A stretch of DNA of 64,000 nucleotides, from assembly GCA_032718475.1 (NCBI GenBank), contig JAUCBJ010008544.1, positions 1-64,000 of the forward strand. The letters run 5' to 3'. Source of the stretch: Nemertoderma westbladi. Its lineage: Eukaryota > Animalia > Xenacoelomorpha. The first letter of the stretch is position 1, and the number at the start of each line of letters is the position of its first letter. Shown one piece after another: positions 1 to 47,970 of the stretch. The notes under the pieces were generated by a model that was not told the origin of the DNA, searched no databases, and worked only from the letters and a program-made list of their open reading frames with translations. Both the position numbers and the translations under genes were made by a program.

Positions 1-211
1 CAAATCAAGGTTCATTACATGGATATTATTTAAACCATTAGAAGAATAGTATTTCAAACATTAGAAGGAGTTACTATTTGAAGCGAAAATAATTAGGAGA
101 AAATTCAAAAATGAAATATATAAATAAAATTAGAATGGTTTAGTCAAATATGTTAGTTATTGCTAAATAATTACTAGGTTACTTAAGGTAGGCTGTTCAC
201 TTATATTTCAG

Positions 212-28452: not shown

Positions 28453-28590
28453 TGATGAATTATTTCACTATAAGGTAGCATTTGTAGTTTAACTTTAACG
28501 TAAAAACTTTTGAAAATCCGACGTATTTTGATTAAGTTACAGTAATGTAATATGCCTATTCATATTTGTACACATAAAACCCTTAGGTAC

Positions 28591-28665
28591 TCTCGTGGCG
28601 TAGTGGTCAGATGGTTAAGGCGTTGGTTACATTACGTAGGTTACGAGTTCGAATCCCAGTCGGGA
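28591..28665 (+). ncRNA. tRNA-like Pol III unit inside the 5' LTR of element B
   Basis: A-box-like TGGCGTAGTGG (28596-28606), B box GAGTTCGAATCCC (28645-28657), terminal pairing tctcg/cggga, TTTT at 28674-28677; the anticodon arm is not canonical. Confidence 0.55.
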
Positions 28666-28711
28666 AATTTGTATTTTGGGGCCATTTATTTTCGTGTGTT
28701 GCTAATTGGTA

Positions 28712-28985
28712 GGCCAATGAGAAGCGTACAGCGTAGCGAATGATGAGCCAGGCCAATCATAGGGCATAAATTATCTTATTGCTCAAATGTGAGGCAGTGG
28801 AAAATTCTGTTAGGATTCCATGTCCCAGATTAGTGTAAGGGCTGGACTGCGTTGAACGATGAGCTGGGCCAATCATAGAGCACCGAAGCACTTCATTGCT
28901 CAATGGTGAAGCTGTGGAAAATTCTGTTTAGTTTCCATGTGCAATTTCTAGTATAAAAGGCCGGTTTGCCTTCGGTTATCACACT
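28712..28985 (+). promoter_or_regulatory. Pol II promoter of the element B LTR: three CCAAT boxes (two in a ~116-bp duplicated module) and TATAAAA
   Basis: gccaatgag (~28713), gccaatcatagggca (~28752), gccaatcatagagca (~28868), tataaaagg (~28953). Confidence 0.6.
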
Positions 28986-31634
28986 CTCTGTTATCATCCT
29001 GATATCGTTTATTCTTGTAAAATTAGTTAATTCGGTTTCTTGTTGAAACTTTATTTGATAAATCCTTTTGTAAAACTGTAAATATACTGCAATTTCCTGA
29101 CATGTTTTCTTTTGGTCCGACTTCGGGACAGCCGAACACCAGGGAGATGGCAGCCTAGATCGTTAGGCCGTAAGCAACGCAGGGAAGGGATGTCCACAAC
29201 ACGCTAGCGCCCACATTGGATCGACCGCGCACCCCCTTTGCCCCTTCGAAATGCTCAACTTGCTATGCAGCGCCCGCTTTGTGAGAAGGTAAGACTTTGT
29301 TCGACGCCCTTGCCCGCCGTAAGACCTATAGATCAGGGTAAGCGTGACACCGTACTGGACGCCGCAAATTTAGGATCAAATAATTATATCCAGACACCCC
29401 CCCCCCCCTTTGTCAGTCCTACGAATCCCTGGGTTAACCTGTACTTCCTACAGGTGCGAACTATTGCCATTCGTCAGTACGCGAGTACATATTAGGTACG
29501 GACAGCATACGTTCCATAATTTAGTGATTCATAGCACTGACTGTTTGGTACCGGTTCGCTTTGTAGAACGTACATTAGTACCCCCCCCCCCCCTGTCTGG
29601 AGTTAGCTATTTGATCAGGCAAGGAGCATTTCTGCTACCGGCACACTGCTTGGCCTAGGGAGGTTTATTAATATCCTACCGCGCCTTGCCACGTACTGAT
29701 AGGTATTGCTGCTAACTACCGCAGCAACAAAGTTCTAGAATTAAATTAGTATACCAGATCAGCTAACGTACGGTAGCGATTAACCCCTATTCTTATCTTA
29801 CAACCAGAATCTGGTATTAGTGCCGATCACGGGTGTAGTTACTAACACTGTGGTTGCCCATTGGGTTGTGGATAGGAAGGAGAGAGCTTTGACGTCATTC
29901 GTGAGTATAAAGTTCTACAAACGCGACTAGTTTATTTTAGTAGCTAGCGCACGGTATCATTTAGTCAGAAAATCACTAAAACCTAGTAAAAGGAATTACA
30001 CGAAATTGTTTTATTTGTAACACACCCACACACACACGCCCTAAAACATATCGCCCTTAAAGTTCTACTAGCTATAGCGTACTATACATTACTTTAGGTG
30101 GAAATTATCTGTATTTGTAAAATTAGGATCTGATTTAGTTGCGGCAAGATAAGGAGTATTTCACTTTCGTTATTAAACTGTTGTTTGTCTGGACAACGGT
30201 ATTGTTACATTTAGGCCTGACCTTTTAGACTGATTTCGTACAGGGGGATCAGTTATTGTTACATTTAGGCACGACCTTTAGGCTGATTTCGACAGGGATG
30301 ATCAGCATTGTTACACTAGGTCTGTTAACCACCTAGTTCGTATATAACCCATATAAATCACACCGCGGCAAGTTACTGTATTTAGGACTGTCAGTGATAG
30401 TTAGGATTCGCTGCGCGGGGATTGTTTTCCCGTGAGTTTGGTCTGTTACTGTAACTGTACATCTGCCTCACCGGTTAGAGGACAGGTATCCTTCTGTCTA
30501 GTACGTAGGCATTAGACCCGCTCACGTACATAGAATAGATACAAGGCTCTGTTCCTCGCCAGTAGTCGTTTGTGTACTATATCTGTTTGTTTAGATATCC
30601 TGGACTGGGATTTGTTGTCAGATACTGTACAAGCCCGTATACATTACTAGAGTCTCATAGTAAGATACATCGTTACTAGGATCTGGTAAGCGGTATACTA
30701 CTGGACCCTTACAGTAGGAAGTATATTATACAAATTCTGAAATTAGTGTATAGTATAGTTTAGATCTGCTAGCTATTGTAAGTAGGAGATATTTAAAAAT
30801 TTAAGGTTAGTAAATTTAGTAATTTAGAACGTCCCCTGCTTCAGTAGGCTTTTAGGGTAGCTAGTACTTTCGTATTTAATATTTGACTAGCTAACAGTTA
30901 GTTTGTAGCACTTTGTTTTACGCCGTGTGTGTGCGGTGTTACTTTTCGGTACTTGAAAAGGTACATAGGGTTTAAAGACCAATTTGTATCGGTACCTAGG
31001 AAGATTTTTCGTAAGCGTAGAAGTAAAACTCTCACCTTCGACCTTTTCAGGACTCAAGGACTCATTTCTGGACCGCTTCGAGGATTAGACCGCTTTTCGC
31101 AAAGTTTGGGAGACAATAAATTCGTCCGCGCCGCCGAAAAACGGAAAGACCCACGTCCGGTTTGTATTTGGGAATTTGTACGACTGGAAGATCAAAGGAA
31201 CGTAAGTTTTACGACTCGCGTCGTTCAAACTTAAGAAAGCACAGTAGTACTCAAAATTTGTGGGTTTCACTGTCTATTAGTAGTGTTGTTGGTACTTATT
31301 TTCCCGTTAGACGTTGCTGTTTGGCCTATTGTTTATACTTGTTGATCTACATTTTGTTAACGTATATCGTTATCTCACTTATTCGTACAAATTTAGCCGG
31401 TAGGCTAGATTACTACTTATTTTATTATATACCTTGTTAGTTTATTTGTACCGGTTAGGGTATATATATGATATATATATATATCAAGGTAAGTTTGACA
31501 TTTGTACATTTCGACATTTTGACATTTCGACATTCTGACTTGTTGATTTATTTGTACCGGTTAGGTAAGTTTAACACTTCAACATTCAGACACTTTGACA
31601 TTTTATTATCCGTACTTGACGTATATAATAAGAC

Positions 31635-34600
31635 ATGAGTGACATACCCCATTCGACGAGATACCCACCTACCGACTATGACTCGTGCGACCCGGACAGA
31701 TCGACAGTAGACGAACCGAGAAGGAGAACCCGAGATTCCACCGATGTCACACCGCTTGCGTCGCCGGTACCCCGAACGGAAATACCGGAAACCGCAACGC
31801 GTGGCGACGGCAGAATCGAAGATTTCCTTACCGTCCCGCAGACTAGATCGCGGGAACCGGACATGGTAAGTTCGACTGGAAGCCAGGAGAACGTTATTAG
31901 AAGTATAGGAGGACACATGGCCCAGATTACTCGGAACCTCGGAGAAGGTTTTCGCGTTTTACGCGAGTTAACCGCCCCGATGTCGAGATACGAGTTCTAC
32001 ACCTTACAGGTAAGGATAGAAAGTAGGGTACATGCCTCCGTAGATAAACTTAAAGGTTTGCACGAACTTGCAGAGTTGCGTGGCGACAACTTTACTCAGG
32101 TAAAGATAGTAGATAAATTGGTAAGTGCGAGAGAAAGCCTTATCCAGTTTAAGTCGGTGATAAGATTGGCTCAACAGGAGCAGTTTGACCAACTGCTAGG
32201 TGAGTCAGTTTCGGACGCGTTGTTACAACCCGAAGAGGAAGAAGAACTCTACTGCCTGGACGGAAGGTTGGAAACGCTGACCAATTTTCTTCGTAGATGC
32301 GGCGTACCGATCGACGAACCGGAAGTCGAACCACGAGGGACGACGGAAGTTCTCACTACGGAAGGCTCGCGAGCCTACCAACATCCACCACTGGATAGAT
32401 CGTTCGTTAGCGTACGGAGCGACGTTGGCAACGTTGGCGACGTTAGTAGAACAGCGTCTGGAATTACTCGACAACAACAGGAGGTTGCACGCCGACAACA
32501 AGTCGCCGAGGAAGAAGCGCGACACCAGATGGCACAGATCGCCATCGAAGGAGAGAAACAACATAGAGAGGACGAGGCAAGAATTGCACAACTCAAGGCG
32601 CAAGCCGAATTCGAAGCTTCGGAAATGCGCAGACTGGAGGAGGACTTAGCGCGAGAAGCGGCGGCAGCAGCCGACGAGTTAGCACGGAAGAAAGCAGCAT
32701 CCGATGCTCGTGCCAAGTTGGAGGCGCGACAAATAAACGCACGATTAGCTATACAGGAAGCGGAATTAGCGGCACAACAACAAGTAGCGGATCGACGCGA
32801 AAGGGAGATGCAACTACAGTTCGAATTGAATCGTAGATCGCGTGAGACAGCGAACGCGCAAGCGGACCTCGAACTCGACGCGAGAGATAGATCTATAAGA
32901 TCGCGAACTGGACACGACTTGTCTGCCCTGGATCGTATGGAAGCTCGATATCGCGGAATACAGAAGCGGATCGAGGAAGGAAGTGTGGGAGCGATAGATC
33001 GAGGAGAGGAGTTCGTCGAGGATTACTGTAAACGTTTTCCCCAAGTTATTCCTATGCTCAAACCCACGACTCCGATAAAACCGGTCTTCGTTACGAAACC
33101 TAAGGAAATAACGCCTGTGCGTTCGACGCAAGGCAACAGGTTTGTTGTGACGGAATTACCGCAACCTAGGGCGACTTCATCGCCAATTTTAGCAGGTAAC
33201 ATAACTAGTCCACCTACAGTAAGTCGTAGTCTACTTGTAGGAAGAGAGGAACCTGCGTTTATGACCATTAAACAGGTGAGTAAACCATTACAAGTTAAAC
33301 CTGTGACGTGCTGCGCGAACCCAGTCATTTATAAACCTACAGTAGACCTTAACCCTGATGTTTTTACTAGACCTCTCACCCAATGTTTAACGAGACCTAC
33401 GACTTCGTGGAAGGCTTGCGAGCCTGCCGAACAACGGAGAGCCGTAGATCTCAGATCACAACGAACTCGACCAAGGATAATACGCCGGACGCGAACCCGC
33501 CAACCACCTTATCCGGACGACAGCGATTCATCCAGTGACTTGGAGTCGACGGAACGGGAAATATTCCGTACTGGAGCGGCAGCGGCAGCGGATTACAAAC
33601 GGGAGGAACGATCGACGAACCCCTATATTGACAATCCTCCACGAGAAACACCCCAACAGAAACCCACGTTGCAACCAGCGGAAACGATCAGCGCCAAACA
33701 GTTCACCGAGATGACGGACAGAATAGCTCAACTCGAAGAACGACTCGAAGCGCAACCGTCGGATCGATCTCGAACCAGCGTGGAGTTGGAACAACCTAGA
33801 CAACATCGACCACCGAGGAGAGAACAGGAGACTAGACGGACTCCGACACATCGAGAAGATGATCCCGTTAATAATTCCTACCGACGAACAACGCGCGGAA
33901 GGGAGCGACTGGACGACGCCGCCGAACAGGGACGCGGACAGTTGGATTTAGTTAGCGAGATTGCGAAATTCGCGGCTAGACACGGATTACCGGCACAGCA
34001 ACCGCCGAAGTTCTCTGGCAACGCGAAACACTGGCGCACACTGGTAGACTACGTAGAGTCCCAGATCGCTAAGTGTGCTTTCACCTCGACGGAGAAGTTT
34101 AACTACTTGCTCCAAGTTCTGTCTGGTGAGCCGAAACGATTAGCGGAAACCTTTATTGGTGTTCCCGATGCCTTTGAGTTGGCGTACGACCGTTTGTATT
34201 CGATTTACGGCGGTAATGTCGCCATGGCTAAATCCATCATTGAAGACCTCTGCAGAGGAGGCAACATTTCGAGACCGATCGACCTTTTACGACTCGCGGA
34301 CGAAATAAAGAACGCTATAGGGACTTTACGGTCCATTGGACAACTCGAGTACGCTAACGCACCGACGGTTCTCATTCGAATAATCGGTCGACTTCATCAT
34401 CGACTACGACGAGAATGGCGACGCATCGAGTACCAACGCGAAGAGGCCGGAGGGTTATTAAAACTCACCGATGTCTATCAACTTATTTCACGGGAGGCCG
34501 TGATCGAGACTCGATCGAACTATACCGATCACCATATCGCGGCGGAAGGGATAACTGTTTCTGCGCCGAATCGGACAAAACCATTTCCGACGAACGCGAA

Positions 34601-37600
34601 AGCCGTTACTTACGCCACCCCTACTGAGACTTCTAAAGTTCTGACGCCTATCGGCACCACGCAGCCACGACAACAGTTGCCGGCGGACTTTGTGGGATGC
34701 TCATACTGCGAGCGGAACGGCAGAAACCATAGCGGACATAAACTACGTGGATGTCGCGCTTTTAAAGAGTTAGGGATCGAGGAAAGGAGACTCCAAATCC
34801 GATCTCTAGATTCCTGTTGGAGATGTATGAAGCCAGGACACGTCCGGAAGGATTGCCCGAGCGACGATACATGTTCTTTGTGTGGACGTAACCATGACGC
34901 GTTGCTTCACACAACCAGTCATACTCCGACCAGACGCTTTCGACGAGAGCATCCAGATAAAGCGGCTAGATGCGACGCGCTTTATAAGGAGCGTGCGCCG
35001 CGCGAGATCCGTACCTTTTATACCGACTGTATGGATCAGTCAGGATCATCGGACGAGGACGAGGAGGAAGACGACACTTTCTACGTGCATGCAGGTGAGG
35101 AACAGCCATCGATAACGCTCCTCACACAGAACCAATTGAAAGGGTTTAGCGTGATTCCTATAAAGATTACCGGAACCCGAGGGAGCAAGCGTATATACGC
35201 CATCTTAGACTCTGCGTCATCGCATAGCTATGTCGACGAACAAGTAGCCGACGTAGTTACGGACTTGAGTCAAGGTAAGACTGCTCAGTATACTGTAAGC
35301 AGCATGCATGGTAAGAGAGCGATTCCTGTGACGAGAGTAAAACTAACCTTAGACACTCTTCTTTCCAAAGCGGAACACAGCAAGGAGGAGCGCTCATTAC
35401 TTCCGGTAAGAAATTTGACCTTTGCAGCTACGAAGGACTTTAGTAACTTGCTCGGCCCTGTGCCAGAGCAATCACCGGAAGATCGTAAGTATTTCCGACA
35501 CCTTGGAATACCGGAATGTCCTGTCAATTATCGTTCCATTGCGATGTTAATTGGGACAGACCAGTTTAACTTACATCAGGTATGGGAGACACGCCCATCT
35601 GTTATTACAGCAGGCAACCCCTACGCATGTAGAACTCCCATAGGTTGGTATACTAGAGCACCAATACGTTCACTAGAGGTAAGTGACCAGGAGGACGACG
35701 TTTTGAGTACGTGTAGTTTATTGACTAACACGATAGATAATTCTCCTTCACACTCCTGTGGTCCAATTGTACGGACGGCACTACGACAGACTTGCGTCAC
35801 TAACGCGGACGCCACCGATACTGACGTAACCGATCTGGACACGACCATACGGACCTCTGACTTACAACTACTTGCAGTAGACCAGGTTGTATTGACTACT
35901 GAAGACCTGAGGGTTGTTGCTGTGGATGACTCGATGAACGAGGATTTTGGAAGGCTTGCGAGCCTACCGAAAAATCCGAAGGTCATTGACCCCACCCACC
36001 AGGCTTCGACACCGGTCGTTGATCTTGGAAGGCTTGCGAGCCTACCGATAGATCAAGAAGTTGTCAAACCGCCGCACGACAATTCGACGCCGACTAGTGA
36101 CACCGGAAGGCTTGCGAGCCTACCAGACACATTGACACTAGCCACCGCAGCGGACGAAGACGTGGACGAGGACCATGGCGCAGTGCAAGCAGCGTTTGAC
36201 CGACTGCTGACTGAACGGACCATACAATGGTTGGAACAGGACTCAGCAGAACCCGGTAGTTACGAGACCGCTATGTCAGAACAGGAAAAACGGTCATTAA
36301 ATATTATGAGAGATACCATTCGCCAGACTGCGAATGGCCACTATGAGGTTGGTATGTTGTGGCGCGATGGACAACCTAAGCTCGTTAACAATTACCCGCT
36401 TGCTTTGAGGCGACTCAAATCAATAAGGCAGCGATTGTTGCGAGACGAGACGGCCCATATGCAATACAACGCACAACTTCAGACGTATCTCCAAAAGGGA
36501 TACGCCATTAGGATGTTAAATCCTGAGGTAACTACAGACCAGACATATTACCTGCCACATCATTTTGTTCGACACCCGGACAAACCTGGCAAGGTGCGTG
36601 TAGTCAACGACTGCGCTGCGCTTTACCAAGGGATGTCTATGAACAGCGAACTGATGGACGGGCCGAATATGAATAATTACCTCATGGGAGTCCTAATGCG
36701 TTTTAGACAACGCAAAGTGGCTTTCACCTGTGACGTAGAGGCCATGTTTCACCAGGTTAAGGCTTTGGAGCGGGACAGGGACAGTTTGAGGTTTCTTTGG
36801 TATCCGGACGGAAACTTACAACTTCCGCCAGAAACTTACCAAATGCAGGTAAGAGTATTCGGAGCCAGGGACAGCCCCAACTGCACCATGTACGCATTGA
36901 AGCAGACAGCATTGGACAGACGAGACCAATTTGACCCAGAAGTAGTTCGGACCGTGGAACGAGATTTCTACGTGGATGACGGCCTCAAGAGTTGTGACAC
37001 CTTGGAGCGCGCTACAACCGTAGCACACCAACTCCAGGATTGTCTCGCTGAGGGCGGATTTCACCTGACGAAGTTCGCTTCCAACGAACCCGAACTGGTG
37101 AACTCATTTGACCCGACGGATCGTAGCGGAGGTGACTTGGACTTAGACCTAGAACCTCTGCCGACGACCAAAGTATTAGGACTTAGTTGGGACCCTAACA
37201 CCGACAATTTTAGGGTACGTGTAAGGTCCAACGACCAGACTAGACCTCTCACTAAGAGGACTTGCTTATCGACTATGAGTCGATTGTATGACCCATTGTG
37301 TTTCATTAGTCCAGTGATCCTACATGCCAGGATCATACTCCGCAGCATTTGGCAAGCCGGACTGGAATGGGACGATCCCATCCCAGAAAAGTTAGCTGAG
37401 CGATGGAGGGACTGGGAAGCCCAACTGACGTTCCTACAAGACTATACCATACCGAGGGTATACTTTCCTTTACAAACCACCTTTCCTGCCGATTTAGAGC
37501 TTCACAGCTTTAGTGACGCTAGCAAGGATGGATTGGGGGTTACTTTATACCTTAGACGACAAGTGACATCGGACAGCTACGATGTGTCTCTCGTTACTTC

Positions 37601-40400
37601 AAGGGCTAGAACAATGCCATTGAAGTATATGACTGTACCTCGTGGGGAGCTGCAAGCCGGGACGATATCCACCGATATTGTCAGTCTAGTTCAACGCGAG
37701 CTGGAGGCTAACTTGAAGGTCACATATTGGACGGATGCGACGTTGGTACTTTGGTACATAAACAACGAAACATTCGAGTTCAAGACTTTCGTAGCCAACA
37801 GACGGGCTGAAATACTAGACCGGTCGCTCAATCAAGATTGGCGTCACTGTCCAGGGAAGCTGAACCCAGCTGACATCGCGTCACGGGGAATGCAACCACT
37901 TGACTTTTGTAAACCGGACAATAAATCCTTTTGGTTTAGAGGACCCGATTTCCTACAGCGACCATCAGACGAATGGCCACCGTTATTCGACGCGACAACC
38001 AACACCATACCAGAGGGTGCCGAGATAAAACTCGACAAGGTTGTCAAGTCTAAAGCGAAAGCCAACGCCAAGGTCAAAAGGAAAAAAGGACGGACGAAAT
38101 CTGATGACCTGGACGCCAGACCTGACATTACGCCAGACGTCTCGCCAGACACTCGACCAGACGCTTGTACGAATCCTTCGCCGGATGTTCCGCGGGAGAT
38201 TTCACCAGACGTTTCGCCGGATTGTTCACCAGATTACTCGCCAGACTATTCACCAGAAGAGACACCAGATTGTTCTCCGGATTGTTCGCCAGATTGTTTG
38301 ATGGAACTCTCGACAGAATGTCTACCGGACGTCTCACCAGACTGTTCACCAGACATCTCGACAGACTGTCCACCAGACTGTCTACCAGACTTTGAACCAG
38401 ACTTTCTGACAGAAGTTACGCTAGACAGACTTTGGGACCGACGACAGGACATTTCGCCGGATGTTCCGCGCTATGTCTCACCAGACGTCTCACCAGACTG
38501 TTCACCAGACGCTTCACCAGACTGTCTACTAGACACTCCATTAGAAGACCCATTGGAGCGGACATTTAGAGACGTACCAAATTCGACTTCTTTGGACGAC
38601 AGAGATGTGGCCACAGGGATTACACTCCGCTCGAAGAAGGTACTTGACTTACCTACAGGTAAACGTGTGACTAAGGTTAGGAAGCTTACAGGCTCACAGG
38701 AACACACTGACGCTGTAGAGTTGAAACCATTACTGCCAGTCGACACATTAGGTGCGGACGGTAAAGGTAAGACCGTAGAGATTGACGTACTTGGGGACTC
38801 AGACAAACCTACCGGAAGGCCCGTGGGCCTACCAAGTCCAGACAAGTATCCACACTACGACTACACCTTACCCGATGACGTCACTAACACTTACGTTGAC
38901 AGGATAGTGAACCTAACTAGATCATGGACTGACGCGTGCCGCAAGTTAGCATGGCTCAAACGATTGAGACAATATGCCAGAGGCAAACGCGACTTTCCTA
39001 GAAGACTTACCTTAAAGGAAATTGGCCACTGTGAAGTTGATATCATTCGACATTATCAATTGCGATATTTCGCACGAGAGTTCACAGCGATCAAACAAGG
39101 TAAACAGATTAAGTCTTCACCGATTTTGAGTTGGAGTCCGATTATTTACCGGGGCTTACTTTGTCACAAGTCCAGACTCCAAAACATCGACTTTGCACTT
39201 GACTTTAGGTATCCTATCATCATACCGCAACACCATGAGTTACAGCGCGCTATGATACTGGACGCACATGTACAACTCAAACACGTAGGTAGACACCACT
39301 GTCTATCACACTTACGCTCGAGGTTTGTACTGATTAGACCTAGTAAGGCACTGAGTTCAGTAACACGGAACTGTATTATTTGTAAGAAGGTGCACGCGAG
39401 GATAGGACACCAAGAAATGAGTGAACTACCACTAGCAAGATTACAGGCGTTTAGACCCCCTTTCACTGAGACAGGGATAGACTGTTTTGGACCCATAATC
39501 GCGAAACGCGGAAGGGTACAGGTAAAACGTTGGGGATTGATCTTCACTTGCATGGCCAGCAGAGCTGTCCATATAGAGCGAGTGACAGACTTGTCCACCA
39601 ATGCCTTTATCCTAGCCTTACGGCGATTTATCGCTAGACGTGGATTGGTCAAATCCATATACTGCGACCAAGGGACAAACTTTGTGGGTGCACGGAACGA
39701 GATAACCAGAGCTTTGAGAAAATTGGACCAAAACCAGATTTCCGAGGAACTACGTCCTCACCGTATTGTTTGGTTTTTCAATACTCCAGACAGTCCGTGG
39801 AGAGGCGGCGTTTGGGAAAGGCTGATTGGCTCAATAAAGACAGCTATGGCTAAAGTCGTACCGACGCAACACATCTTGACAGACGACCAACTGACGACGT
39901 TACTAATAGAAATCGAAGCAATCTTAAATACCAGACCGATCGCTTTGATCCCAGACAATAACGACGTACAGTTTGCCTTGACACCAGCGCACCTGCTTAT
40001 GCAGGCGCCGACGACACTGTTGCCCATTTCGGTACCCGTTGATAGTGACGGATACGGCAACAAGGCTTGGAAAATCACTCAATTGCTTGCAAATAAATTC
40101 TGGGAAATATGGCAGAAATATTATTTGCCCTCTATTTCGACCAGAACCTCTTGGTATCTAAATACCCGATGTTTAAGACGTGGTGACCATGTTTTATTGG
40201 CTGAAGCTAATCTGAAAAGACGGTTTTGGCTGACTGGAGTCATTTTGACCACGCACCCTACATCTGGTGTAGTGAGGACAGTTACTGTACGGACTATCGA
40301 CGGTCGTACCGTAGACAGACCTGTACAACGTCTCGTACTCCTTGAGGAGACTAGAAACGAGACGGGAGACTACAAATCTCCACCCAATATTAGTAAATAG
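31635..40400 (+). CDS. gag-pol: BEL/Pao Gag-Pol polyprotein (coiled-coil Gag, triple zinc knuckle, aspartic protease, RT, RNase H, integrase), 2921 aa
   Basis: PPKFSGN, CSYC...H...C / CWRCMKPGHVRKDC / CSLCGRNH, AILDSAS, YYLPHH...KVRVVND, FTCDVEAMFHQV, FYVDDG, FSDASKDG, YWTDA, NPADIASRG, GIDCFGP, YCDQGTNFVG, GGVWERLI; uninterrupted. Confidence 0.97.
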   Translation: MSDIPHSTRYPPTDYDSCDPDRSTVDEPRRRTRDSTDVTPLASPVPRTEIPETATRGDGRIEDFLTVPQTRSREPDMVSSTGSQENVIRSIGGHMAQITRNLGEGFRVLRELTAPMSRYEFYTLQVRIESRVHASVDKLKGLHELAELRGDNFTQVKIVDKLVSARESLIQFKSVIRLAQQEQFDQLLGESVSDALLQPEEEEELYCLDGRLETLTNFLRRCGVPIDEPEVEPRGTTEVLTTEGSRAYQHPPLDRSFVSVRSDVGNVGDVSRTASGITRQQQEVARRQQVAEEEARHQMAQIAIEGEKQHREDEARIAQLKAQAEFEASEMRRLEEDLAREAAAAADELARKKAASDARAKLEARQINARLAIQEAELAAQQQVADRREREMQLQFELNRRSRETANAQADLELDARDRSIRSRTGHDLSALDRMEARYRGIQKRIEEGSVGAIDRGEEFVEDYCKRFPQVIPMLKPTTPIKPVFVTKPKEITPVRSTQGNRFVVTELPQPRATSSPILAGNITSPPTVSRSLLVGREEPAFMTIKQVSKPLQVKPVTCCANPVIYKPTVDLNPDVFTRPLTQCLTRPTTSWKACEPAEQRRAVDLRSQRTRPRIIRRTRTRQPPYPDDSDSSSDLESTEREIFRTGAAAAADYKREERSTNPYIDNPPRETPQQKPTLQPAETISAKQFTEMTDRIAQLEERLEAQPSDRSRTSVELEQPRQHRPPRREQETRRTPTHREDDPVNNSYRRTTRGRERLDDAAEQGRGQLDLVSEIAKFAARHGLPAQQPPKFSGNAKHWRTLVDYVESQIAKCAFTSTEKFNYLLQVLSGEPKRLAETFIGVPDAFELAYDRLYSIYGGNVAMAKSIIEDLCRGGNISRPIDLLRLADEIKNAIGTLRSIGQLEYANAPTVLIRIIGRLHHRLRREWRRIEYQREEAGGLLKLTDVYQLISREAVIETRSNYTDHHIAAEGITVSAPNRTKPFPTNAKAVTYATPTETSKVLTPIGTTQPRQQLPADFVGCSYCERNGRNHSGHKLRGCRAFKELGIEERRLQIRSLDSCWRCMKPGHVRKDCPSDDTCSLCGRNHDALLHTTSHTPTRRFRREHPDKAARCDALYKERAPREIRTFYTDCMDQSGSSDEDEEEDDTFYVHAGEEQPSITLLTQNQLKGFSVIPIKITGTRGSKRIYAILDSASSHSYVDEQVADVVTDLSQGKTAQYTVSSMHGKRAIPVTRVKLTLDTLLSKAEHSKEERSLLPVRNLTFAATKDFSNLLGPVPEQSPEDRKYFRHLGIPECPVNYRSIAMLIGTDQFNLHQVWETRPSVITAGNPYACRTPIGWYTRAPIRSLEVSDQEDDVLSTCSLLTNTIDNSPSHSCGPIVRTALRQTCVTNADATDTDVTDLDTTIRTSDLQLLAVDQVVLTTEDLRVVAVDDSMNEDFGRLASLPKNPKVIDPTHQASTPVVDLGRLASLPIDQEVVKPPHDNSTPTSDTGRLASLPDTLTLATAADEDVDEDHGAVQAAFDRLLTERTIQWLEQDSAEPGSYETAMSEQEKRSLNIMRDTIRQTANGHYEVGMLWRDGQPKLVNNYPLALRRLKSIRQRLLRDETAHMQYNAQLQTYLQKGYAIRMLNPEVTTDQTYYLPHHFVRHPDKPGKVRVVNDCAALYQGMSMNSELMDGPNMNNYLMGVLMRFRQRKVAFTCDVEAMFHQVKALERDRDSLRFLWYPDGNLQLPPETYQMQVRVFGARDSPNCTMYALKQTALDRRDQFDPEVVRTVERDFYVDDGLKSCDTLERATTVAHQLQDCLAEGGFHLTKFASNEPELVNSFDPTDRSGGDLDLDLEPLPTTKVLGLSWDPNTDNFRVRVRSNDQTRPLTKRTCLSTMSRLYDPLCFISPVILHARIILRSIWQAGLEWDDPIPEKLAERWRDWEAQLTFLQDYTIPRVYFPLQTTFPADLELHSFSDASKDGLGVTLYLRRQVTSDSYDVSLVTSRARTMPLKYMTVPRGELQAGTISTDIVSLVQRELEANLKVTYWTDATLVLWYINNETFEFKTFVANRRAEILDRSLNQDWRHCPGKLNPADIASRGMQPLDFCKPDNKSFWFRGPDFLQRPSDEWPPLFDATTNTIPEGAEIKLDKVVKSKAKANAKVKRKKGRTKSDDLDARPDITPDVSPDTRPDACTNPSPDVPREISPDVSPDCSPDYSPDYSPEETPDCSPDCSPDCLMELSTECLPDVSPDCSPDISTDCPPDCLPDFEPDFLTEVTLDRLWDRRQDISPDVPRYVSPDVSPDCSPDASPDCLLDTPLEDPLERTFRDVPNSTSLDDRDVATGITLRSKKVLDLPTGKRVTKVRKLTGSQEHTDAVELKPLLPVDTLGADGKGKTVEIDVLGDSDKPTGRPVGLPSPDKYPHYDYTLPDDVTNTYVDRIVNLTRSWTDACRKLAWLKRLRQYARGKRDFPRRLTLKEIGHCEVDIIRHYQLRYFAREFTAIKQGKQIKSSPILSWSPIIYRGLLCHKSRLQNIDFALDFRYPIIIPQHHELQRAMILDAHVQLKHVGRHHCLSHLRSRFVLIRPSKALSSVTRNCIICKKVHARIGHQEMSELPLARLQAFRPPFTETGIDCFGPIIAKRGRVQVKRWGLIFTCMASRAVHIERVTDLSTNAFILALRRFIARRGLVKSIYCDQGTNFVGARNEITRALRKLDQNQISEELRPHRIVWFFNTPDSPWRGGVWERLIGSIKTAMAKVVPTQHILTDDQLTTLLIEIEAILNTRPIALIPDNNDVQFALTPAHLLMQAPTTLLPISVPVDSDGYGNKAWKITQLLANKFWEIWQKYYLPSISTRTSWYLNTRCLRRGDHVLLAEANLKRRFWLTGVILTTHPTSGVVRTVTVRTIDGRTVDRPVQRLVLLEETRNETGDYKSPPNISK

Positions 40401-41136
40401 ATGTGGGACCTTTGTTGGCCGCCACATAGACCTACTGTATTTTAGTTATTTGTATTTGTATTACTGTACGTGCATTTGTAATCCTCTTCACTGTAGATAG
40501 AGACAGCGGTGGAATTCCATTGTCTTTATACGTGAACATGGAGGGTAGTACCCTTATGTATCACATAGGAGCGGGATTGTGTGTACAGTAGGAATGGAAT
40601 TCCACTTGGAACCCACAAGTGAGACAATTTTCAAAAATTATTAGACAAATCCATTTAGTTGGATTTAAATTTAAGAAAAACGATTCTCCAGTGAAAGCAA
40701 ATTCTAGAATACAGCTAGATAAAATTAAAATTGGGGAGGACAAGAGCGGATGGAAGGCTTGCGAGCCTACCGATAAATTTTTTTTGGAAAAAGAAAATCG
40801 GTCTTGTTCTACGTAGTCGTGTCTACTATTATTTAGACCGAATTAATTCTCGACTGCACTATTTTTCTTGGGAAATGTAGCTTGGGAAATTAAAAGGTGA
40901 GTATTTTAGACTCGCGGCTAGTTTACCCGGAATTCGTTTTTTATCGGCACAATTTTTTGGATTAGGGGCCAGTGCGAAATCACGCGAACCCGAAGTCATT
41001 AGGCAAAATGGGTTGGGGTTTAGAGCAGAGTTGAGCCAAAAGCCAACAAACTCTGGAGTCACCTCACATCTAACCTCTATTTTGTGCTTCATCTAGTAGA
41101 AACGTAACGATATGTAACCGCATATATTCGTATACA

Positions 41137-43896
41137 ATGGTGGAGAAGATGTATAAAGAGTTACGTCAAGGGTTTACGCAAGAACAGGAGCACCAGGCAC
41201 CATTCAATCGTTATGGAGCTAAAAACTTTAGTGTGTTTGGAGTGGAGAGTATGGCTAGGAGTACGGCCAAGCTCGCTAAATCCAAGGCGGACCCGAATGT
41301 TACGCGACAGCGGTTGGACGCATACAACAAAAGAACGGAGGAATTACGCGCGGAATACAATGCGTTATATCCCTACGATGCGTTATGCGACGCTAGCGAC
41401 ATTTGCGAGGATCCAGACACCGAAATACGCCGATTGTATCATACGCTGCAATATTTGACGGTAAACGAACCTTTACCTGCAGCTAGAGACGAATTTGAAG
41501 GAATGCATCTTTATAGACGCGCTCGAGGAGCGGATCCAGAGACCAAGGACGCGTTTTCCGTATACAAACTGTTTTATAAATGTGGAGCGTGTATGCGCGA
41601 GCAAGACAACGCGATTCCTATGCGGTTGAACTCGGAGAACCCCGAGCCGATATTAGCGCGATGTTCACACCACCAAAGTCTACGTTACCAAGAAGGCGGA
41701 TACCCTTTGACAAATCCGTATCATTCATTTAAGATGAGTGGACCGAACGCGGGTGAGATCGTTATTTACGAACCTAAATTAGTCGAACCAGACGTCTACA
41801 GCATGGTAGTGGACGAGTCTAACAAGTCGACACAAGAGAAACGGGAAGCTTTGAGCCTCTACAGGGCGTACAAGGCGTACGAGAAAGGCGAGATCGAGGA
41901 GTTCGGCGGAAGGCTCAAAGGATACTTTAGAGAGTATAACACGCTAAAAACTGGGACGGGTTATATCTCATATCTGATGTTCAGTTGGGATTACAAGGAG
42001 AGTAAGAGGAACAAATACACGGACGTATACGGAGAGGGAGATACCCCCGGCGTAAACGAGTTCGAGTCACAGTTGAAGTGGCGAGGTTGCGTGTATTGGG
42101 CGATTACTTCACCTCCGCGGATAATCTTGCAATACTATTTAGCGATAGAATCTTCGGTTAACGTTTGTTTCATCGCGGACGTAGTATCCAGAACCTTAAA
42201 GCGACACCCGTTATGTCTTGGCGAAGGACATACCTTTTACGATGGAGGAAGGACGCATACTGATGTATTCCGACGATTTCTCCAACCCTTTTATAACACC
42301 GATGCGCACTGCGAAGTTTTCACGCGAGCGGGACTTAGCGTTTTCAGGGACGTCTATCTCACTCACGCGGGAAGTCTAGTCGACAGACCGTCGATGTTAA
42401 CGTTAGTACCCTATGACGGGGAACGCCACGCGGAATTCGAACGCCCGGAAGGATCCTGGAAGGCTCGCGAGCCTACCGCCCATCATGACGATGTGGATCC
42501 GACCGAGTTGGCGCTAATAGACGAACCGTTACGGCAACTCATAGAAATAGAAGAGAACCTTCCAAGGAAGACGCGAACTGAGATACGCGAGTTAGAGAAA
42601 AGCGATGCCATGGTTTGTGTACAACCTACGGAGACGAACATACCGACTGACCCGGATGATGAGAATTATCACGTGGACGGTAGCGCTCGCCCCATCGGAG
42701 ACCTCATCTATGAGCGAGTTTGGTATCCTGCCAACACTATTTGTGGCAGATGTGGAGCAACTGGCCATCACGCAAAGAAGTGCGGAGCGAAGCACATATC
42801 TCTACCGGATTTAGTATGCAACTGGTGCGGGGATCAACGTTCGCACACTTTCTACACTTGCTGGCGTTTCGTGGCGCAGTGTACTTATTGTAATATTAAG
42901 GGCCATAGGGCATCTGAATGTCAACTTAGAGACGTCCCCTATGAGCACATGTCAGTTAAAATCGTTCGACAATTATTCGACCATTGGGAGGATCTAGCAG
43001 ACGAGCATGTATCGACGCAGCGACGCCGCTTCCCTATGAGAGCACATTTGGGATTTTGGGCCGTAAACCCTCTCATAATGTCAAAGGAAGGATATGTATC
43101 GGCTATGCCTCAGTACGATGAATTGTTGGAGGTATTGGATATATTGCCGTTGGACAGTGGATTCAAAGTTGTGCGGGACTATTTCTTACAAGTGCACCCG
43201 GACAACAAGAATACTTGGAACTTTCAAACTGTGGTGAACAAGATTACCGCCGGAGAATTCGATAAACTGCGAGTTGAACAGCGGAATCGAGGAGCCTGGC
43301 ATTCGATAGCTTGGGCATACCGGAGCGCATTTTATCACAAACGCGTAACCTCGTGCATTCTGGACGAGACCGACGTTTTGCGTGAGACTGGCTTCAAGGC
43401 CACGCCGTTAGCGGAGAAGACGCGTCACCCACAGGATGATCAGCAATTTCGTATACTCAAAGCCCAGAAGGCCGGACAAGAGATTAAGAAGATAGTGAAT
43501 GTCGCCGAGAGGACGACATCGAAGTCGCAAATCCGGATGACTCGGGGCACGGTTTCCCTTGCTAGAGAACCACGCGGAGGGACAGGATACGCTTTGACTG
43601 AACCCATTAGGATTCAAACGACGTCAGAGAGCGAGGTGTCAACGGACGGAACAGTCCTACCCTTTCGACTTCCTCCTAGCGTTGTAGAAACTCGATCCGA
43701 TGTTAAGTCGACAGTTGGAATCGGACGAGGATTTAGAGGATTGAGCGCACGACGGATGTGCGAAACTCCCGTCGTCCCCTTTCCTAGCGTTTTGGAACCA
43801 CCGACGACTCGACGCCGAAGTCCGAGCCCAGTTCGACCTCGACCACCCCCCAATCGCACTAGAGGACGTGGACGAGCCCGCTCAGCGAAGGAATAG
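41137..43896 (+). CDS. Accessory ORF2 of element B, 919 aa, three CCHC zinc knuckles and an Arg/Ser/Pro/Gly-rich C-terminus; function unknown
   Basis: Long uninterrupted ORF between pol and the 3' LTR; CGRCGATGHHAKKC, CNWCGDQRSHTFYTC, CTYCNIKGHRASEC; good start context (acaATGg); upstream acceptor ctaac...ctctattttgtgcttcatctag (41070-41096). Confidence 0.85.
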   Translation: MVEKMYKELRQGFTQEQEHQAPFNRYGAKNFSVFGVESMARSTAKLAKSKADPNVTRQRLDAYNKRTEELRAEYNALYPYDALCDASDICEDPDTEIRRLYHTLQYLTVNEPLPAARDEFEGMHLYRRARGADPETKDAFSVYKLFYKCGACMREQDNAIPMRLNSENPEPILARCSHHQSLRYQEGGYPLTNPYHSFKMSGPNAGEIVIYEPKLVEPDVYSMVVDESNKSTQEKREALSLYRAYKAYEKGEIEEFGGRLKGYFREYNTLKTGTGYISYLMFSWDYKESKRNKYTDVYGEGDTPGVNEFESQLKWRGCVYWAITSPPRIILQYYLAIESSVNVCFIADVVSRTLKRHPLCLGEGHTFYDGGRTHTDVFRRFLQPFYNTDAHCEVFTRAGLSVFRDVYLTHAGSLVDRPSMLTLVPYDGERHAEFERPEGSWKAREPTAHHDDVDPTELALIDEPLRQLIEIEENLPRKTRTEIRELEKSDAMVCVQPTETNIPTDPDDENYHVDGSARPIGDLIYERVWYPANTICGRCGATGHHAKKCGAKHISLPDLVCNWCGDQRSHTFYTCWRFVAQCTYCNIKGHRASECQLRDVPYEHMSVKIVRQLFDHWEDLADEHVSTQRRRFPMRAHLGFWAVNPLIMSKEGYVSAMPQYDELLEVLDILPLDSGFKVVRDYFLQVHPDNKNTWNFQTVVNKITAGEFDKLRVEQRNRGAWHSIAWAYRSAFYHKRVTSCILDETDVLRETGFKATPLAEKTRHPQDDQQFRILKAQKAGQEIKKIVNVAERTTSKSQIRMTRGTVSLAREPRGGTGYALTEPIRIQTTSESEVSTDGTVLPFRLPPSVVETRSDVKSTVGIGRGFRGLSARRMCETPVVPFPSVLEPPTTRRRSPSPVRPRPPPNRTRGRGRARSAKE

Positions 43897-45707
43897 GAAG
43901 CGAGTGGAAGGAAGGCTTGCGAGCCTACCGATTTGGATATTATATTTGGATATTATATTTGGATATTATATTTGGATATTTTATTTGGATATTTATATTG
44001 GACATACCTAAAGAGGTGAGGTCTCTATAGGGGTGTGTCCAACAGGCGGCGGCGGACTCGTGAGGGTCTGGGGGCACGTTAAATCAATATATAGTGCTAG
44101 GGAGTCACTGAAGGCCCTCGTGTCTAGCGAACCATGAATCGACATGGTGCCGTGGTTCCGTCTAGTCGGCCTGTTGCCGTACTGCCAGTCCTGTACACAG
44201 TAGGGGTGGTGGCATGGCGTGATTTGTGGTTCATGTGGCGTGAACTATGTTTTGTATGTGGGCGATCAGTGGCAGTTTGCTTGGGGCTTGGATGGGTTCC
44301 TTTGGCCATCAGCTGTTCCGTTTTTTTGATACTATATGTTATTGTCTCCATGTTCAGCTGATTGGTCTTTGGGATTTGTTCGGGTCTTTGAGCTTTCTGT
44401 TGCTGTGGGTACGTGAGTACATGTGATTGTATGTGTGGCCACTGCGAGTGAGTATGGGAACCCTTGCCAGTTGGTCCAGATGCCGCTGGTATTAGTAGGA
44501 CCATATCTCTACTGCGCCTCAGCATACTTTGTGCACACAAAGTTATTTTGCCCTGTCGGCAAAATAAGGTACTCTCGATTAGCCTGTTAGTCGATACAAT
44601 TTGTCCCCTCTGATTTGACCCCGATTTTGTCTTTACCGATTTTGTCTCTGTGTGTGCATGGTATGTGTTCGATTTGTGCTTACCGTTGTGTACTTGATTT
44701 CGTGAACATCTGTTGAGTACACGTGTACAGTGACTGGTAAGTGGTTACTTGTTCAGTAGCTTTTGAGCTACAGACAGTATTGTCTTTTCAATACTGCCGG
44801 CGAGGCAGGTGAAAACGTGTCAAAATTCCATGTTGGGTAGCGCAAGCCCATGTGGGACAAGACCGTCGGTTAGGCCCAAGGGCGACCTTGGTGCTCGATC
44901 GCTATCGACTGGTCCACCTGCCGGTTGACTCTTTGTTATACTTTGAGTTGGCTCAATGTACAGTCAGGCCACAGTAAGTTGACAGTAGCCGCCCATCTGG
45001 CTACACGTTCGACGAGCTGTGCCGGTGTGATCGGGGGACCGAAAACAGAACCCGGGAAGCATCGGACCACCCTCCGGCCCAGTCTGATAATAACAAGCAG
45101 TCAGACTGGCCCCAGGGGTGGTGGAAAGGTGTCCGCCTTGTGGGTGCGCCTCCGGGAGGAGCCCAGAAGGACACAAGCGTATGTTTGAATGTTGGGTTTG
45201 GAGGAGCGAGATATGGAAGGAAGGCTTGCGAGCCTACCGTTAGCAATTAGTGCTCAGGAGAAGATATCCAGACCAGCAGGACGAACTTTTTAGATCGTCA
45301 GGAGGACTCATTTGAAAGTTATTAGCGCATTATGTTTATATTATATTTGGACAGATTTAATTTGGTGAAGGTTTATTATGTATATTTACAATATATAAAG
45401 ATTTATCGAAAGAGTTTGATTTATTTGTTCGATTTGTTTTGATTTATTTGTTCTGATTTGTTTAATTTGTTTACCTTGATAACCGAAAGCCTTTTTTTGT
45501 ATTTTAGGCACTAAAGTTAATTCGTAAATTTGTATTTGTATGTACGATCGATTGTATTTACGCCGTATCTGCAATATTAAGTATGCAATAATTAGATAGT
45601 GATTATATTTTATATTTTAGGCCCTACCAGTAAATTTAGAAATAGTTTGTAGATATTTTATATTTTGATTGGTGAAAACAGTCTTACTTACTGTTTTCAT
45701 GGAGCGG

Positions 45708-47970
45708 TGATGAATTATTTCACTATAAGGTAGCATTTGTAGTTTAACTTTAACGTAAAAACTTTTGAAAATCCGACGTATTTTGATTAAGTTACAGTAA
45801 TGTAATATGCCTATTCATATTTGTACACATAAAACCCTTAGGTACTCTCGTGGCGTAGTGGTCAGATGGTTAAGGCGTTGGTTACATTACGTAGGTTACG
45901 AGTTCGAATCCCAGTCGGGAAATTTGTATTTTGGGGCCATTTATTTTCGTGTGGTGCTAATTGGTAGGCCAATGAGAAGCGTACAGCGTAGCGAATGATG
46001 AGCCAGGCCAATCATAGGGCATAAATTATCTTATTGCTCAAATGTGAGGCAGTGGAAAATTCTGTTAGGATTCCATGTCCCAGATTAGTGTAAGGGCCGG
46101 ACTGCGTTGAACGATGAGCTGGGCCAATCATAGAGCACGAAGCACTTCATTGCTCAATGGTGAAGCTGTGGAAAATTCTGTTTAGTTTCCATGTGCAATT
46201 TCTAGTATAAAAGGCCGGTTTGCCTTCGGTTATCACCTTCTCTGTTAATCATCCTGATTATCGTTTATTCTTGTAAAATTAGTTAATTCGGTTTCTTGTT
46301 GAAACTTTATTTGATAAATCCTTTTGTAAAACTGTAAATATACTGCAATTTCCTGACATGTTTTCTTTTGGTCCGACTTCGGGACAGCCGAACACCAGGG
46401 AGATGGCAGCCTAGATCGTTAGGCCGTAAGCAACGCAGGGAAGGGATGTCCACAACACGCTAGCGCCCACATTGGATCGACCGCGCACCCCCTTTGCCCC
46501 TTCGAAATGCTCAACTTGCTATGCAGCGCCCGCTTTGTGAGAAGGTAAGACTTTGTTCGACGCCCTTGCCCGCCGTAAGACCTATAGATCAGGGTAAGCG
46601 TGACACCGTACTGGACGCCGCAAATTTAGGATCAAATAATTATATCCAGACACCCCCCCCCCTTTGTCAAGTCCTACGAATCCCTGGGTTAACCTGTACT
46701 TCCTACAGGTGCGAACTATTGCCATTCGTCAGTACGCGAGTACATATTAGGTACGGACAGCATACGTTCCATAATTTAGTGATTCATAGCACTGACTGTT
46801 TGGTACCGGTTCGCTTTGTAGAACGTACATTAGTACCCCCCCCCCCCCCTGTCTGGAGTTAGCTATTTGATCAGGCAAGGAGCATTTCTGCTACCGGCAC
46901 ACTGCTTGGCCTAGGGAGGTTTATTAATATCCTACCGCGCCTTGCCACGTACTGATAGGTATTGCTGCTAACTACCGCAGCAACAAAGTTCTAGAATTAA
47001 ATTAGTATACCAGATCAGCTAACGTACGGTAGCGATTAACCCCTATTCTTATCTTACAACCAGAATCTGGTATTAGTGCCGATCACGGGTGTAGTTACTA
47101 ACACTGTGGTTGCCCATTGGGTTGTGGATAGGAAGGAGAGAGCTTTGACGTCATTCGTGAGTATAAAGTTCTACAAACGCGACTAGTTTATTTTAGTAGC
47201 TAGCGCACGGTATCATTTTAGTCAGAAAATCACTAAAACCTAGTAAAAGGAATTACACGAAATTGTTTTATTTGTAACACACCCACACACACACGCCCTA
47301 AAACATATCGCCCTTAAAGTTCTACTAGCTATAGCGTACTATACATTACTTTAGGTGGAAATTATCTGTATTTGTAAAATTAGGATCTGATTTAGTTGCG
47401 GCAAGATAAGGAGTATTTCACTTTCGTTATTAAACTGTTGTTTGTCTGGACAACGGTATTGTTACATTTAGGCCTGACCTTTTAGACTGATTTCGTACAG
47501 GGGGATCAGTTATTGTTACATTTAGGCACGACCTTTAGGCTGATTTCGACAGGGATGATCAGCATTGTTACACTAGGTCTGTTAACCACCTAGTTCGTAT
47601 ATAACCCATATAAATCACACCGCGGCAAGTTACTGTATTTAGGACTGTCAGTGATAGTTAGGATTCGCTGCGCGGGGATTGTTTTCCCGTGAGTTTGGTC
47701 TGTTACTGTAACTGTACATCTGCCTCACCGGTTAGAGGACAGGTATCCTTCTGTCTAGTACGTAGGCATTAGACCCGCTCACGTACATAGAATAGATACA
47801 AGGCTCTGTTCCTCGCCAGTAGTCGTTTGTGTACTATATCTGTTTGTTTAGATATCCTGGACTGGGATTTGTTGTCAGATACTGTACAAGCCCGTATACA
47901 TTACTAGAGTCTCATAGTAAGATACATCGTTACTAGGATCTGGTAAGCGGTATACTACTGGACCCTTACA
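45708..47970 (+). repeat. 3' LTR of element B (2263 bp)
   Basis: Near-identical to 28453-30713; preceded by a short purine tract ggagcgg. Confidence 0.97.
45846..45920 (+). ncRNA. tRNA-like Pol III unit, second copy (3' LTR of element B)
   Basis: Identical to 28591-28665. Confidence 0.55.

Follow-up and report, generated by a model that had tools for sequence, protein, structure and literature searches.

The window analysed here (64,000 nucleotides, positions 1 to 64,000 of contig JAUCBJ010008544.1, assembly GCA_032718475.1, from the xenacoelomorph Nemertoderma westbladi) contains a long terminal repeat (LTR) retrotransposon, retrotransposon B, through whose internal region a 20-nt hairpin motif is repeated ten times. 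By its sequence the carrier is a young BEL/Pao (Belpaoviridae) element of 19.5 kb with an intact gag-pol. Comparison of the LTRs places the 5' LTR (2,261 bp, TG...CA) at 28453..30713 and the 3' LTR (2,263 bp) at 45708..47970, both on the + strand, and a 5-bp target-site duplication flanks the element (left 28448..28452, right 47971-47975). Between the LTRs lie two open reading frames (ORFs) on the + strand: ORF1 (31635..40400), which encodes a gag-pol polyprotein recognised by Pfam and motif order (2,921 aa, counted from the first Met), and ORF2 (41137..43896), 919 aa from its first Met, an orphan in homology searches. The motif array is a real, selected and unexplained feature, with weak support for any single mechanism.

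A scan with a degenerate 20-mer pattern returns ten exact matches, all on the + strand, whereas 100 shuffles give a mean of 0.03 and none reaches ten; ten '-' matches from the same scan are these sites read backwards, the motif being a quasi-palindrome. Copy 1 (32360..32379) lies in the N-terminal region of gag (frame offset 2), and copy 2 (33409..33428) in the gag linker (offset 1). Copies 3-5 (35949, 36027 and 36105) form a tandem triplication of 78-nt period in the protease-reverse transcriptase (RT) linker (35949..36124), and copy 6 (38814..38833) lies in the RNase H-integrase linker. Copy 7 (40752..40771) falls between ORF1 and ORF2, copy 8 (42458..42477) within ORF2 (offset 1), copy 9 (43910..43929) 13 nt past the ORF2 stop, and copy 10 (45219..45238) 469 nt ahead of the 3' LTR. 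Six copies are thus in ORF1 (offsets 2, 1, 0, 0, 0, 0), one in ORF2 and three in non-coding sequence; the seven coding copies use all three frames and sit in linkers outside recognised domains. These positions, frames and peptides agree with a preliminary description of the locus, as does the statement that the motif occurs nowhere else: both strands of the 64 kb, the LTRs included, are free of any further site that differs from the main variant at 6 or fewer positions (absence from the LTRs alone has P 0.33 and is not significant). The ten dispersed copies of that description are ten sites, but about eight independent ones, because three belong to a single triplication. TA runs aside, no other family of hairpins is dispersed through the internal region.

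The copies are nearly identical. Fifteen of the 20 columns are invariant and six copies are the same throughout; copies 1 and 8 have the loop CGCG, copy 2 has an A.G in place of an A.A mismatch, and copy 6, the sole stem variant, has a C-G closing pair and the loop CGTG. The preliminary description omitted a 5' half-site, the first 9 nt of the motif, within ORF2 (41908..41916, + strand), whose break falls in the loop. The loose ends of six contigs of sequencing run X1 behind 41916 begin like the 3' half of the motif. Other copies of the family probably hold a complete eleventh site at 41908, though the contigs could also stem from a different site.

The case for selection comes from the reading frames and the triplication. 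In copies 3-5 all 20 motif bases are shared, as against 27 of 58 bases in the spacers (Fisher P 3e-5), whose homology to each other shows in 7 of 19 residues (P 0.001 by shuffling); silent changes are seen in 0 of 12 motif codons and at 4 of 7 kept residues in the spacers (P 0.009), with P 0.07 for the triplication tests if one comparison alone is counted. Because three frames are used and the motif has stayed intact while the spacers drifted, the sequences support conservation of the nucleotides rather than the peptide, as the preliminary description had proposed. The flanks of the copies, those in the three non-coding sites included, are unrelated (mean identity 28%). Gene conversion could mimic the triplication pattern. 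It is countered by identity ceasing at the motif edges and by the lack of decayed copies at 5-6 mismatches. The same two observations bear on a neutral origin, in which the hairpin would stall reverse transcriptase, and template switching would copy and homogenise a selfish micro-palindrome without function. Copying from a single source would fit the single orientation and the shared edge bases (a pyrimidine before the motif in 8/10 copies, G after it in 7/10); all coding copies lie outside folded domains, the half-site breaks within the loop, and quasi-palindrome switching can create a two-sided stem change, of the kind seen in copy 6, in a single event. Set against this are the triplication, whose spacers drifted to about 50% around an unchanged motif, a mismatch that was never corrected, and the freedom from the motif of the rest of the window and of the BEL-like element into which retrotransposon B is inserted. 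We regard a neutral array as quite improbable.

In the predicted fold of each copy, a base of 2 bp is followed by a purine-purine mismatch, which is A.A in all but the one copy with A.G, and then by a stem of 5 bp that ends in a 4-nt loop; the loop reads UGCG in seven copies, CGCG in two and CGUG in one. This is the fold first described for the motif (GG/CC, A.A, AGGCT/AGCCT, YGYG), apart from the A.G at 33409. For each of the ten sense 40-mers, the centroid structure has this fold at its core. With pairing restricted to spans of at most 60 nt, the predicted hairpin probability is 0.9-1.0 in 9/10 sense contexts. The mismatch is retained in 10/10 copies, even though a fully paired palindrome would have greater stability. 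All three loop variants, and so all ten sense loops, have the YNMG/YNUG (UNCG-class) consensus, as against 3/10 antisense loops. Protein sites typically look like this, with an exact sequence, a mismatch that is kept and a tetraloop.

The element encodes two candidate readers of such a site. Three nucleocapsid-type zinc knuckles lie in Gag (34698..34922, + strand; zf-CCHC E 0.0046), and ORF2 has three CCHC knuckles (42742-42921; zf-CCHC E 0.002) that weakly resemble the RNA-binding knuckles of nucleocapsid and Air2 (E 0.02-0.15). A protein-read tag is favoured because these candidates stand beside the exact sequence, the kept mismatch and the tetraloop. The ten co-oriented motifs would fold as small hairpins on the sense RNA, and either Gag nucleocapsid or ORF2, as a knuckle protein encoded by the element, would grip them, marking and condensing an unusually long genomic RNA, with packaging rather than export or stabilisation as the outcome. 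The copies would probably have multiplied in cis, through short duplications or template switching, with selection retaining them afterwards. We prefer this reading tentatively, with somewhat less than even confidence; it draws on the number, single orientation and nucleotide-level conservation of the copies, their linker and non-coding positions and even spacing, the knuckles in both ORFs, and the unusual length of the element.

The nearest known concept is that of the dispersed packaging signals of RNA viruses, which vary more (PMC6281560). The pregenomic RNA of HBV and the genomes of single-stranded RNA viruses carry many stem-loops built on a shared motif, in coding sequence as well, and retrotransposon B likewise has multiple dispersed stem-loops with a common motif on the packaged strand, their fold being predicted. 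Among the viral signals a short recognition motif is conserved amid variation, and affinities are unequal (PMC6281560), whereas the putative binding sites of this LTR retrotransposon are 20-mers that hardly differ. The hairpin in domain d of the enterovirus oriL is also of the YNMG/YNUG loop classes, with UGCG among the commonest, and is bound by the viral protein 3C; it is a single copy in the 5' untranslated region (UTR), and only the loop class is common to the two (PMC5633025).

Several observations weigh against a packaging tag on RNA. The isolated fold has the same energy on both strands (-7.6 kcal/mol in 9/10 copies), and the hairpin probability is at least 0.99 in 8/10 antisense contexts. 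The motif had been called strand-specific, which is true of its orientation and does not extend to its fold. It had also been called covarying. A two-sided stem change is present at 38814, affecting 1/8 pairs in 1/10 copies, and is equalled by 147/500 shuffles, so that it is not significant. Without a limit on pairing span, the three tandem copies pair among themselves instead of folding singly. The loop argument is weak, since no more than three distinct loops are involved and the two changes between them are both C-to-T; a C-G closing pair is present in only 1/10 copies. No copy lies in the 5' leader, the site of the dimerisation palindromes and Gag sites of Ty1 (PMC6844567), and copy 1 comes 1,647 nt past the 5' LTR, inside gag. 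ORF2 is preceded by a possible splice acceptor (a branch point with a pyrimidine tract and an AG at 41070..41096, + strand, a candidate suggested by sequence only), and three copies are situated beyond it. If ORF2 were expressed from a spliced RNA, that RNA would carry these three copies, which is unsuited to a tag for genomes only. The near-identity of the copies departs from the viral signals. The gaps of 1.0-2.8 kb between sites are more even than random (coefficient of variation 0.33, P 0.005 when the triplet counts as one site; adding the half-site gives P 0.024), but the test is post hoc and folded domains limit the positions that copies can take.

Even spacing has also been considered as a sign of plus-strand priming or pausing during reverse transcription, with the motifs acting at intervals along a very long genome whose polypurine tract is weak. 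The 5' arm of the motif is purine-rich, the purines extending upstream at 43910 and 45219, and merely six purines are found in the last 7 nt ahead of the 3' LTR. Priming, however, would need neither the 3' arm nor the loop, and the motif is unlike the terminal tract; we consider this role highly improbable.

Base pairing between copies, which the preliminary description did not consider, offers another use of the array on RNA. All ten sense loops are self-complementary with G-U allowed, compared with 2/10 antisense loops, YGYG being exactly the set of loops that self-pair in this way, so the copies could pair with each other. Chaperoned by nucleocapsid, such pairing between or within genomes would dimerise or compact them at many points. 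The duplex of two main-variant copies is predicted at -30.7 kcal/mol on the sense strand and -22.9 on the antisense, against 2 x -7.6 for two hairpins, and copies 3 and 5 pair together in the local minimum-energy fold. Any-to-any pairing would account for the near-identity of the copies. On the other hand, any hairpin yields such a duplex on paper, the retained purine-purine mismatch weakens it, and the 38814 variant pairs less well with other copies (-24.6 to -27.3). Direct repeats also risk deletion in reverse transcription. The precedent is Ty1, whose RNA dimerises through the self-complementary sequences PAL1 and PAL2 with Gag as chaperone (PMC6844567). Ty1 has only a few short palindromes, located in the 5' UTR, whereas retrotransposon B has ten 14-nt palindromic cores spread over 12.9 kb; it shares with Ty1 and retroviral palindromes the sense self-complementarity, as predicted duplexes, and not the 5' leader position (PMC6844567). 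We consider RNA-RNA pairing of this kind unlikely as the explanation of the array, although it would be compatible with a tag read by a knuckle protein.

The asymmetry of the loops tilts towards RNA without settling the question, and double-stranded DNA was considered as the substrate. The quasi-palindrome on the integrated element could be bound by a dimeric protein, perhaps ORF2, that keeps the element active, in the manner of the anti-silencing VANC proteins of VANDAL transposons or of the role proposed for the palindromic motifs of Sireviruses, and the dyad symmetry would fit a dimer. The ORFs are CpG-rich (observed/expected 1.18 and 1.36, vs 0.6 in a neighbouring Helitron ORF), and a CpG lies at the centre of 9/10 motifs. 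CCHC knuckles, however, mostly bind single strands, and wherever the inner part of the motif breaks its symmetry, G-U pairing can accommodate the break on the sense strand but not on the antisense. A single orientation would fit a DNA site too, because the DNA motifs of VANC21 in Arabidopsis VANDAL elements are also co-oriented; they are likewise element-specific and multi-copy, have spread by tandem duplication, and belong to elements with an extra protein that parallels ORF2 as candidate reader (PMC5735166). They differ in being 9 nt long, non-palindromic, dense, non-coding and bound as double-stranded DNA by an element protein, with methylation being lost, in DNA transposons, whereas those of retrotransposon B are 20-nt fold-backs, 7/10 in coding sequence and 1-3 kb apart; dense co-oriented non-coding arrays are thus absent from the element (PMC5735166). 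Sirevirus LTR elements have 8-32 palindromic copies each, linked to an extra ORF, but these belong to plant Copia elements and cluster in the LTRs and ahead of env around a CGG-CCG core, while the present motif lacks that core, is absent from the LTRs and runs through the ORFs (PMC2829016). The coding position of most copies and their absence from LTRs thus set the array apart from motifs that are mostly non-coding and dense, and a DNA site seems doubtful. The RNA-level signal originally proposed accounts better for the array, since the class of the loops and their G-U self-complementarity are properties of the sense strand alone; covariation adds nothing significant to it, and co-orientation fits a DNA site as well.

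A more elaborate scheme would join tag and pairing. Retrotransposon B might represent a giant BEL/Pao lineage with a private protein-RNA code, in which ORF2 reads a palindromic tag, placed every 1-3 kb in any frame, and switches it between hairpin and duplex; many points along a 17-kb RNA, and not one 5' signal, would then serve to tether, zip and pack it. This we hold to be rather unlikely as a whole. The matter is of interest since the choice and packing of RNA by LTR retrotransposons other than Ty1 and Ty3 are poorly known. The International Committee on Taxonomy of Viruses (ICTV) profile calls BEL/Pao replication poorly understood (PMC8742986). A uniform 20-nt motif in ten copies gives a sharp and cheap handle with which to separate protein binding, RNA-RNA pairing and DNA binding. 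If the RNA tag is true, genome-wide signals like those of RNA viruses would exist in animal retrotransposons too, such signals may let an element double in size, and a compact pair of hairpin and reader could become a new RNA-tethering tool. If the DNA site is true, an animal retroelement would have a VANC-like system.

Relatives of the array were sought in several ways. A search of listings and abstract openings in the open-access literature, with subscription papers, Repbase entries and supplements outside the scope, turned up no BEL/Pao element with hairpins arrayed in this way. Covariance models of Rfam gave two chance-level matches (E 1.2 and 3.9), neither at a motif copy. Scans for the motif in viral contigs (4 loci) and metagenome contigs (85 loci) gave a single match at 89/89 loci, with no second within 4 mismatches; these loci have a median GC of 65% and no blastn or tblastn match to the element, and are read as chance matches, with no sign of a bacterial REP-like repeat. 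No related element was found in the viral contigs by RT region or alignment, and a search with the linker region returned no shorter relative. The peptides encoded by the motif occur in 0 of the 120 RT relatives listed (of 302). A repeated hexapeptide is present in 19 of these 120, mostly in tandem, peptide tests being blind to a different hairpin.

Other copies of the family are numerous. Run X1 contributes 20,607 contigs to the internal region and run X2 a further 9,541, many at 80-95% identity, and the family is abundant and diverse in the organism sequenced in these runs. No RNA run is among the sequencing runs listed as containing it. None of the 40 variant sites listed (of 1,235) falls inside the motif; about 0.5 would be expected, and hence this is no evidence of constraint. 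Contigs from other copies skip across ORF2 (41200-43770), one such skip in runs X2 and X4 joining 41699 and 43766, and summed depth is lower there; some copies of the family seem to lack most of ORF2.

ORF2 has an Arg/Ser/Pro-rich tail. Its weakly matched knuckles are its only Pfam match, and homology searches found no homologue; residues 1-450 have no match in the Atlas, residues 500-800 match only knuckle look-alikes, under 0.9, and a single-sequence structure model has a pLDDT of 34.7. An env function was rejected, with a best 19-residue hydropathy of 1.48, no transmembrane segment and no furin-like site. In ORF1 the order is DUF1759, three knuckles, a protease (DSAS), RT (YVDD), RNase H/Peptidase_A17, integrase and DUF5641, with Pfam matches to DUF1759, Peptidase_A17, Integrase_H2C2 and DUF5641. 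An in-frame array of 12-nt tandem units (38110-38545), encoding SPDC/SPDV-like, Cys-rich and acidic repeats, lies in pol between RNase H and integrase.

The assignment to BEL/Pao follows from this domain order, with Pao-type domains and RT kinship, and from the LTRs and target-site duplication. The best of 302 RT relatives is 46% identical, and the named members among these relatives are mostly marine animals; PF05380 is present in all of the 120 listed. The LTRs are 99.4% alike, and the insertion is taken to be recent because they differ at only 9 substitutions and 6 gap columns in 2,265 columns. The element shares with Belpaoviridae its LTRs, its single gag-pol and the same set and order of domains, with RT relatives at 39-46% identity. 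It differs in size, about twice that given for the family (19.5 kb with LTRs of 2.26 kb, against 4.2-10 kb with LTRs of 0.2-1.2 kb), and in an extra ORF that is not env-like; the family profile is silent on internal repeats (PMC8742986). Primer sites in the family comprise 18 nt for host tRNA-Arg or -Gly, and polypurine tracts about 10 nt (PMC8742986). In retrotransposon B the bases after the 5' LTR do not start with TGG, no tRNA-type primer site is apparent at the LTR edge from the element sequence, and the polypurine tract is short.

The ten bases after the 5' LTR (30714-30723) are complementary to 29442-29451 inside it, which could be a hint of self-priming, or chance. The LTR (28453-30713), at 2.26 kb about twice the upper range of the family, has a TATAAAA at 28952 and no AATAAA, and this combination suggests a very long R/U5. 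Near the start of each LTR is a tRNA-like stretch (28586-28668 and 45841-45923) with words that we take to resemble an A-box and a B-box. Neither ARAGORN nor Rfam calls it and it has no cloverleaf fold; it may be what is left of a SINE, or a promoter for Pol III. ARAGORN makes a single call, at 45357, which was set aside because the sequence there is AT-rich. The bases of the target-site duplication at 28448-28452 are those of motif positions 2-6, probably by chance.

Retrotransposon B is nested in the RT region of a broken BEL-like element on the - strand (25543-28452 and 47971-50500). Elsewhere in the window, a Helitron-type ORF of 2,651 aa (167-8122) encodes a Rep/PIF1 helicase with a C-terminal GIY-YIG domain, and a foldback-like element (55094-56785) has long inverted repeats around 49-nt tandem units.

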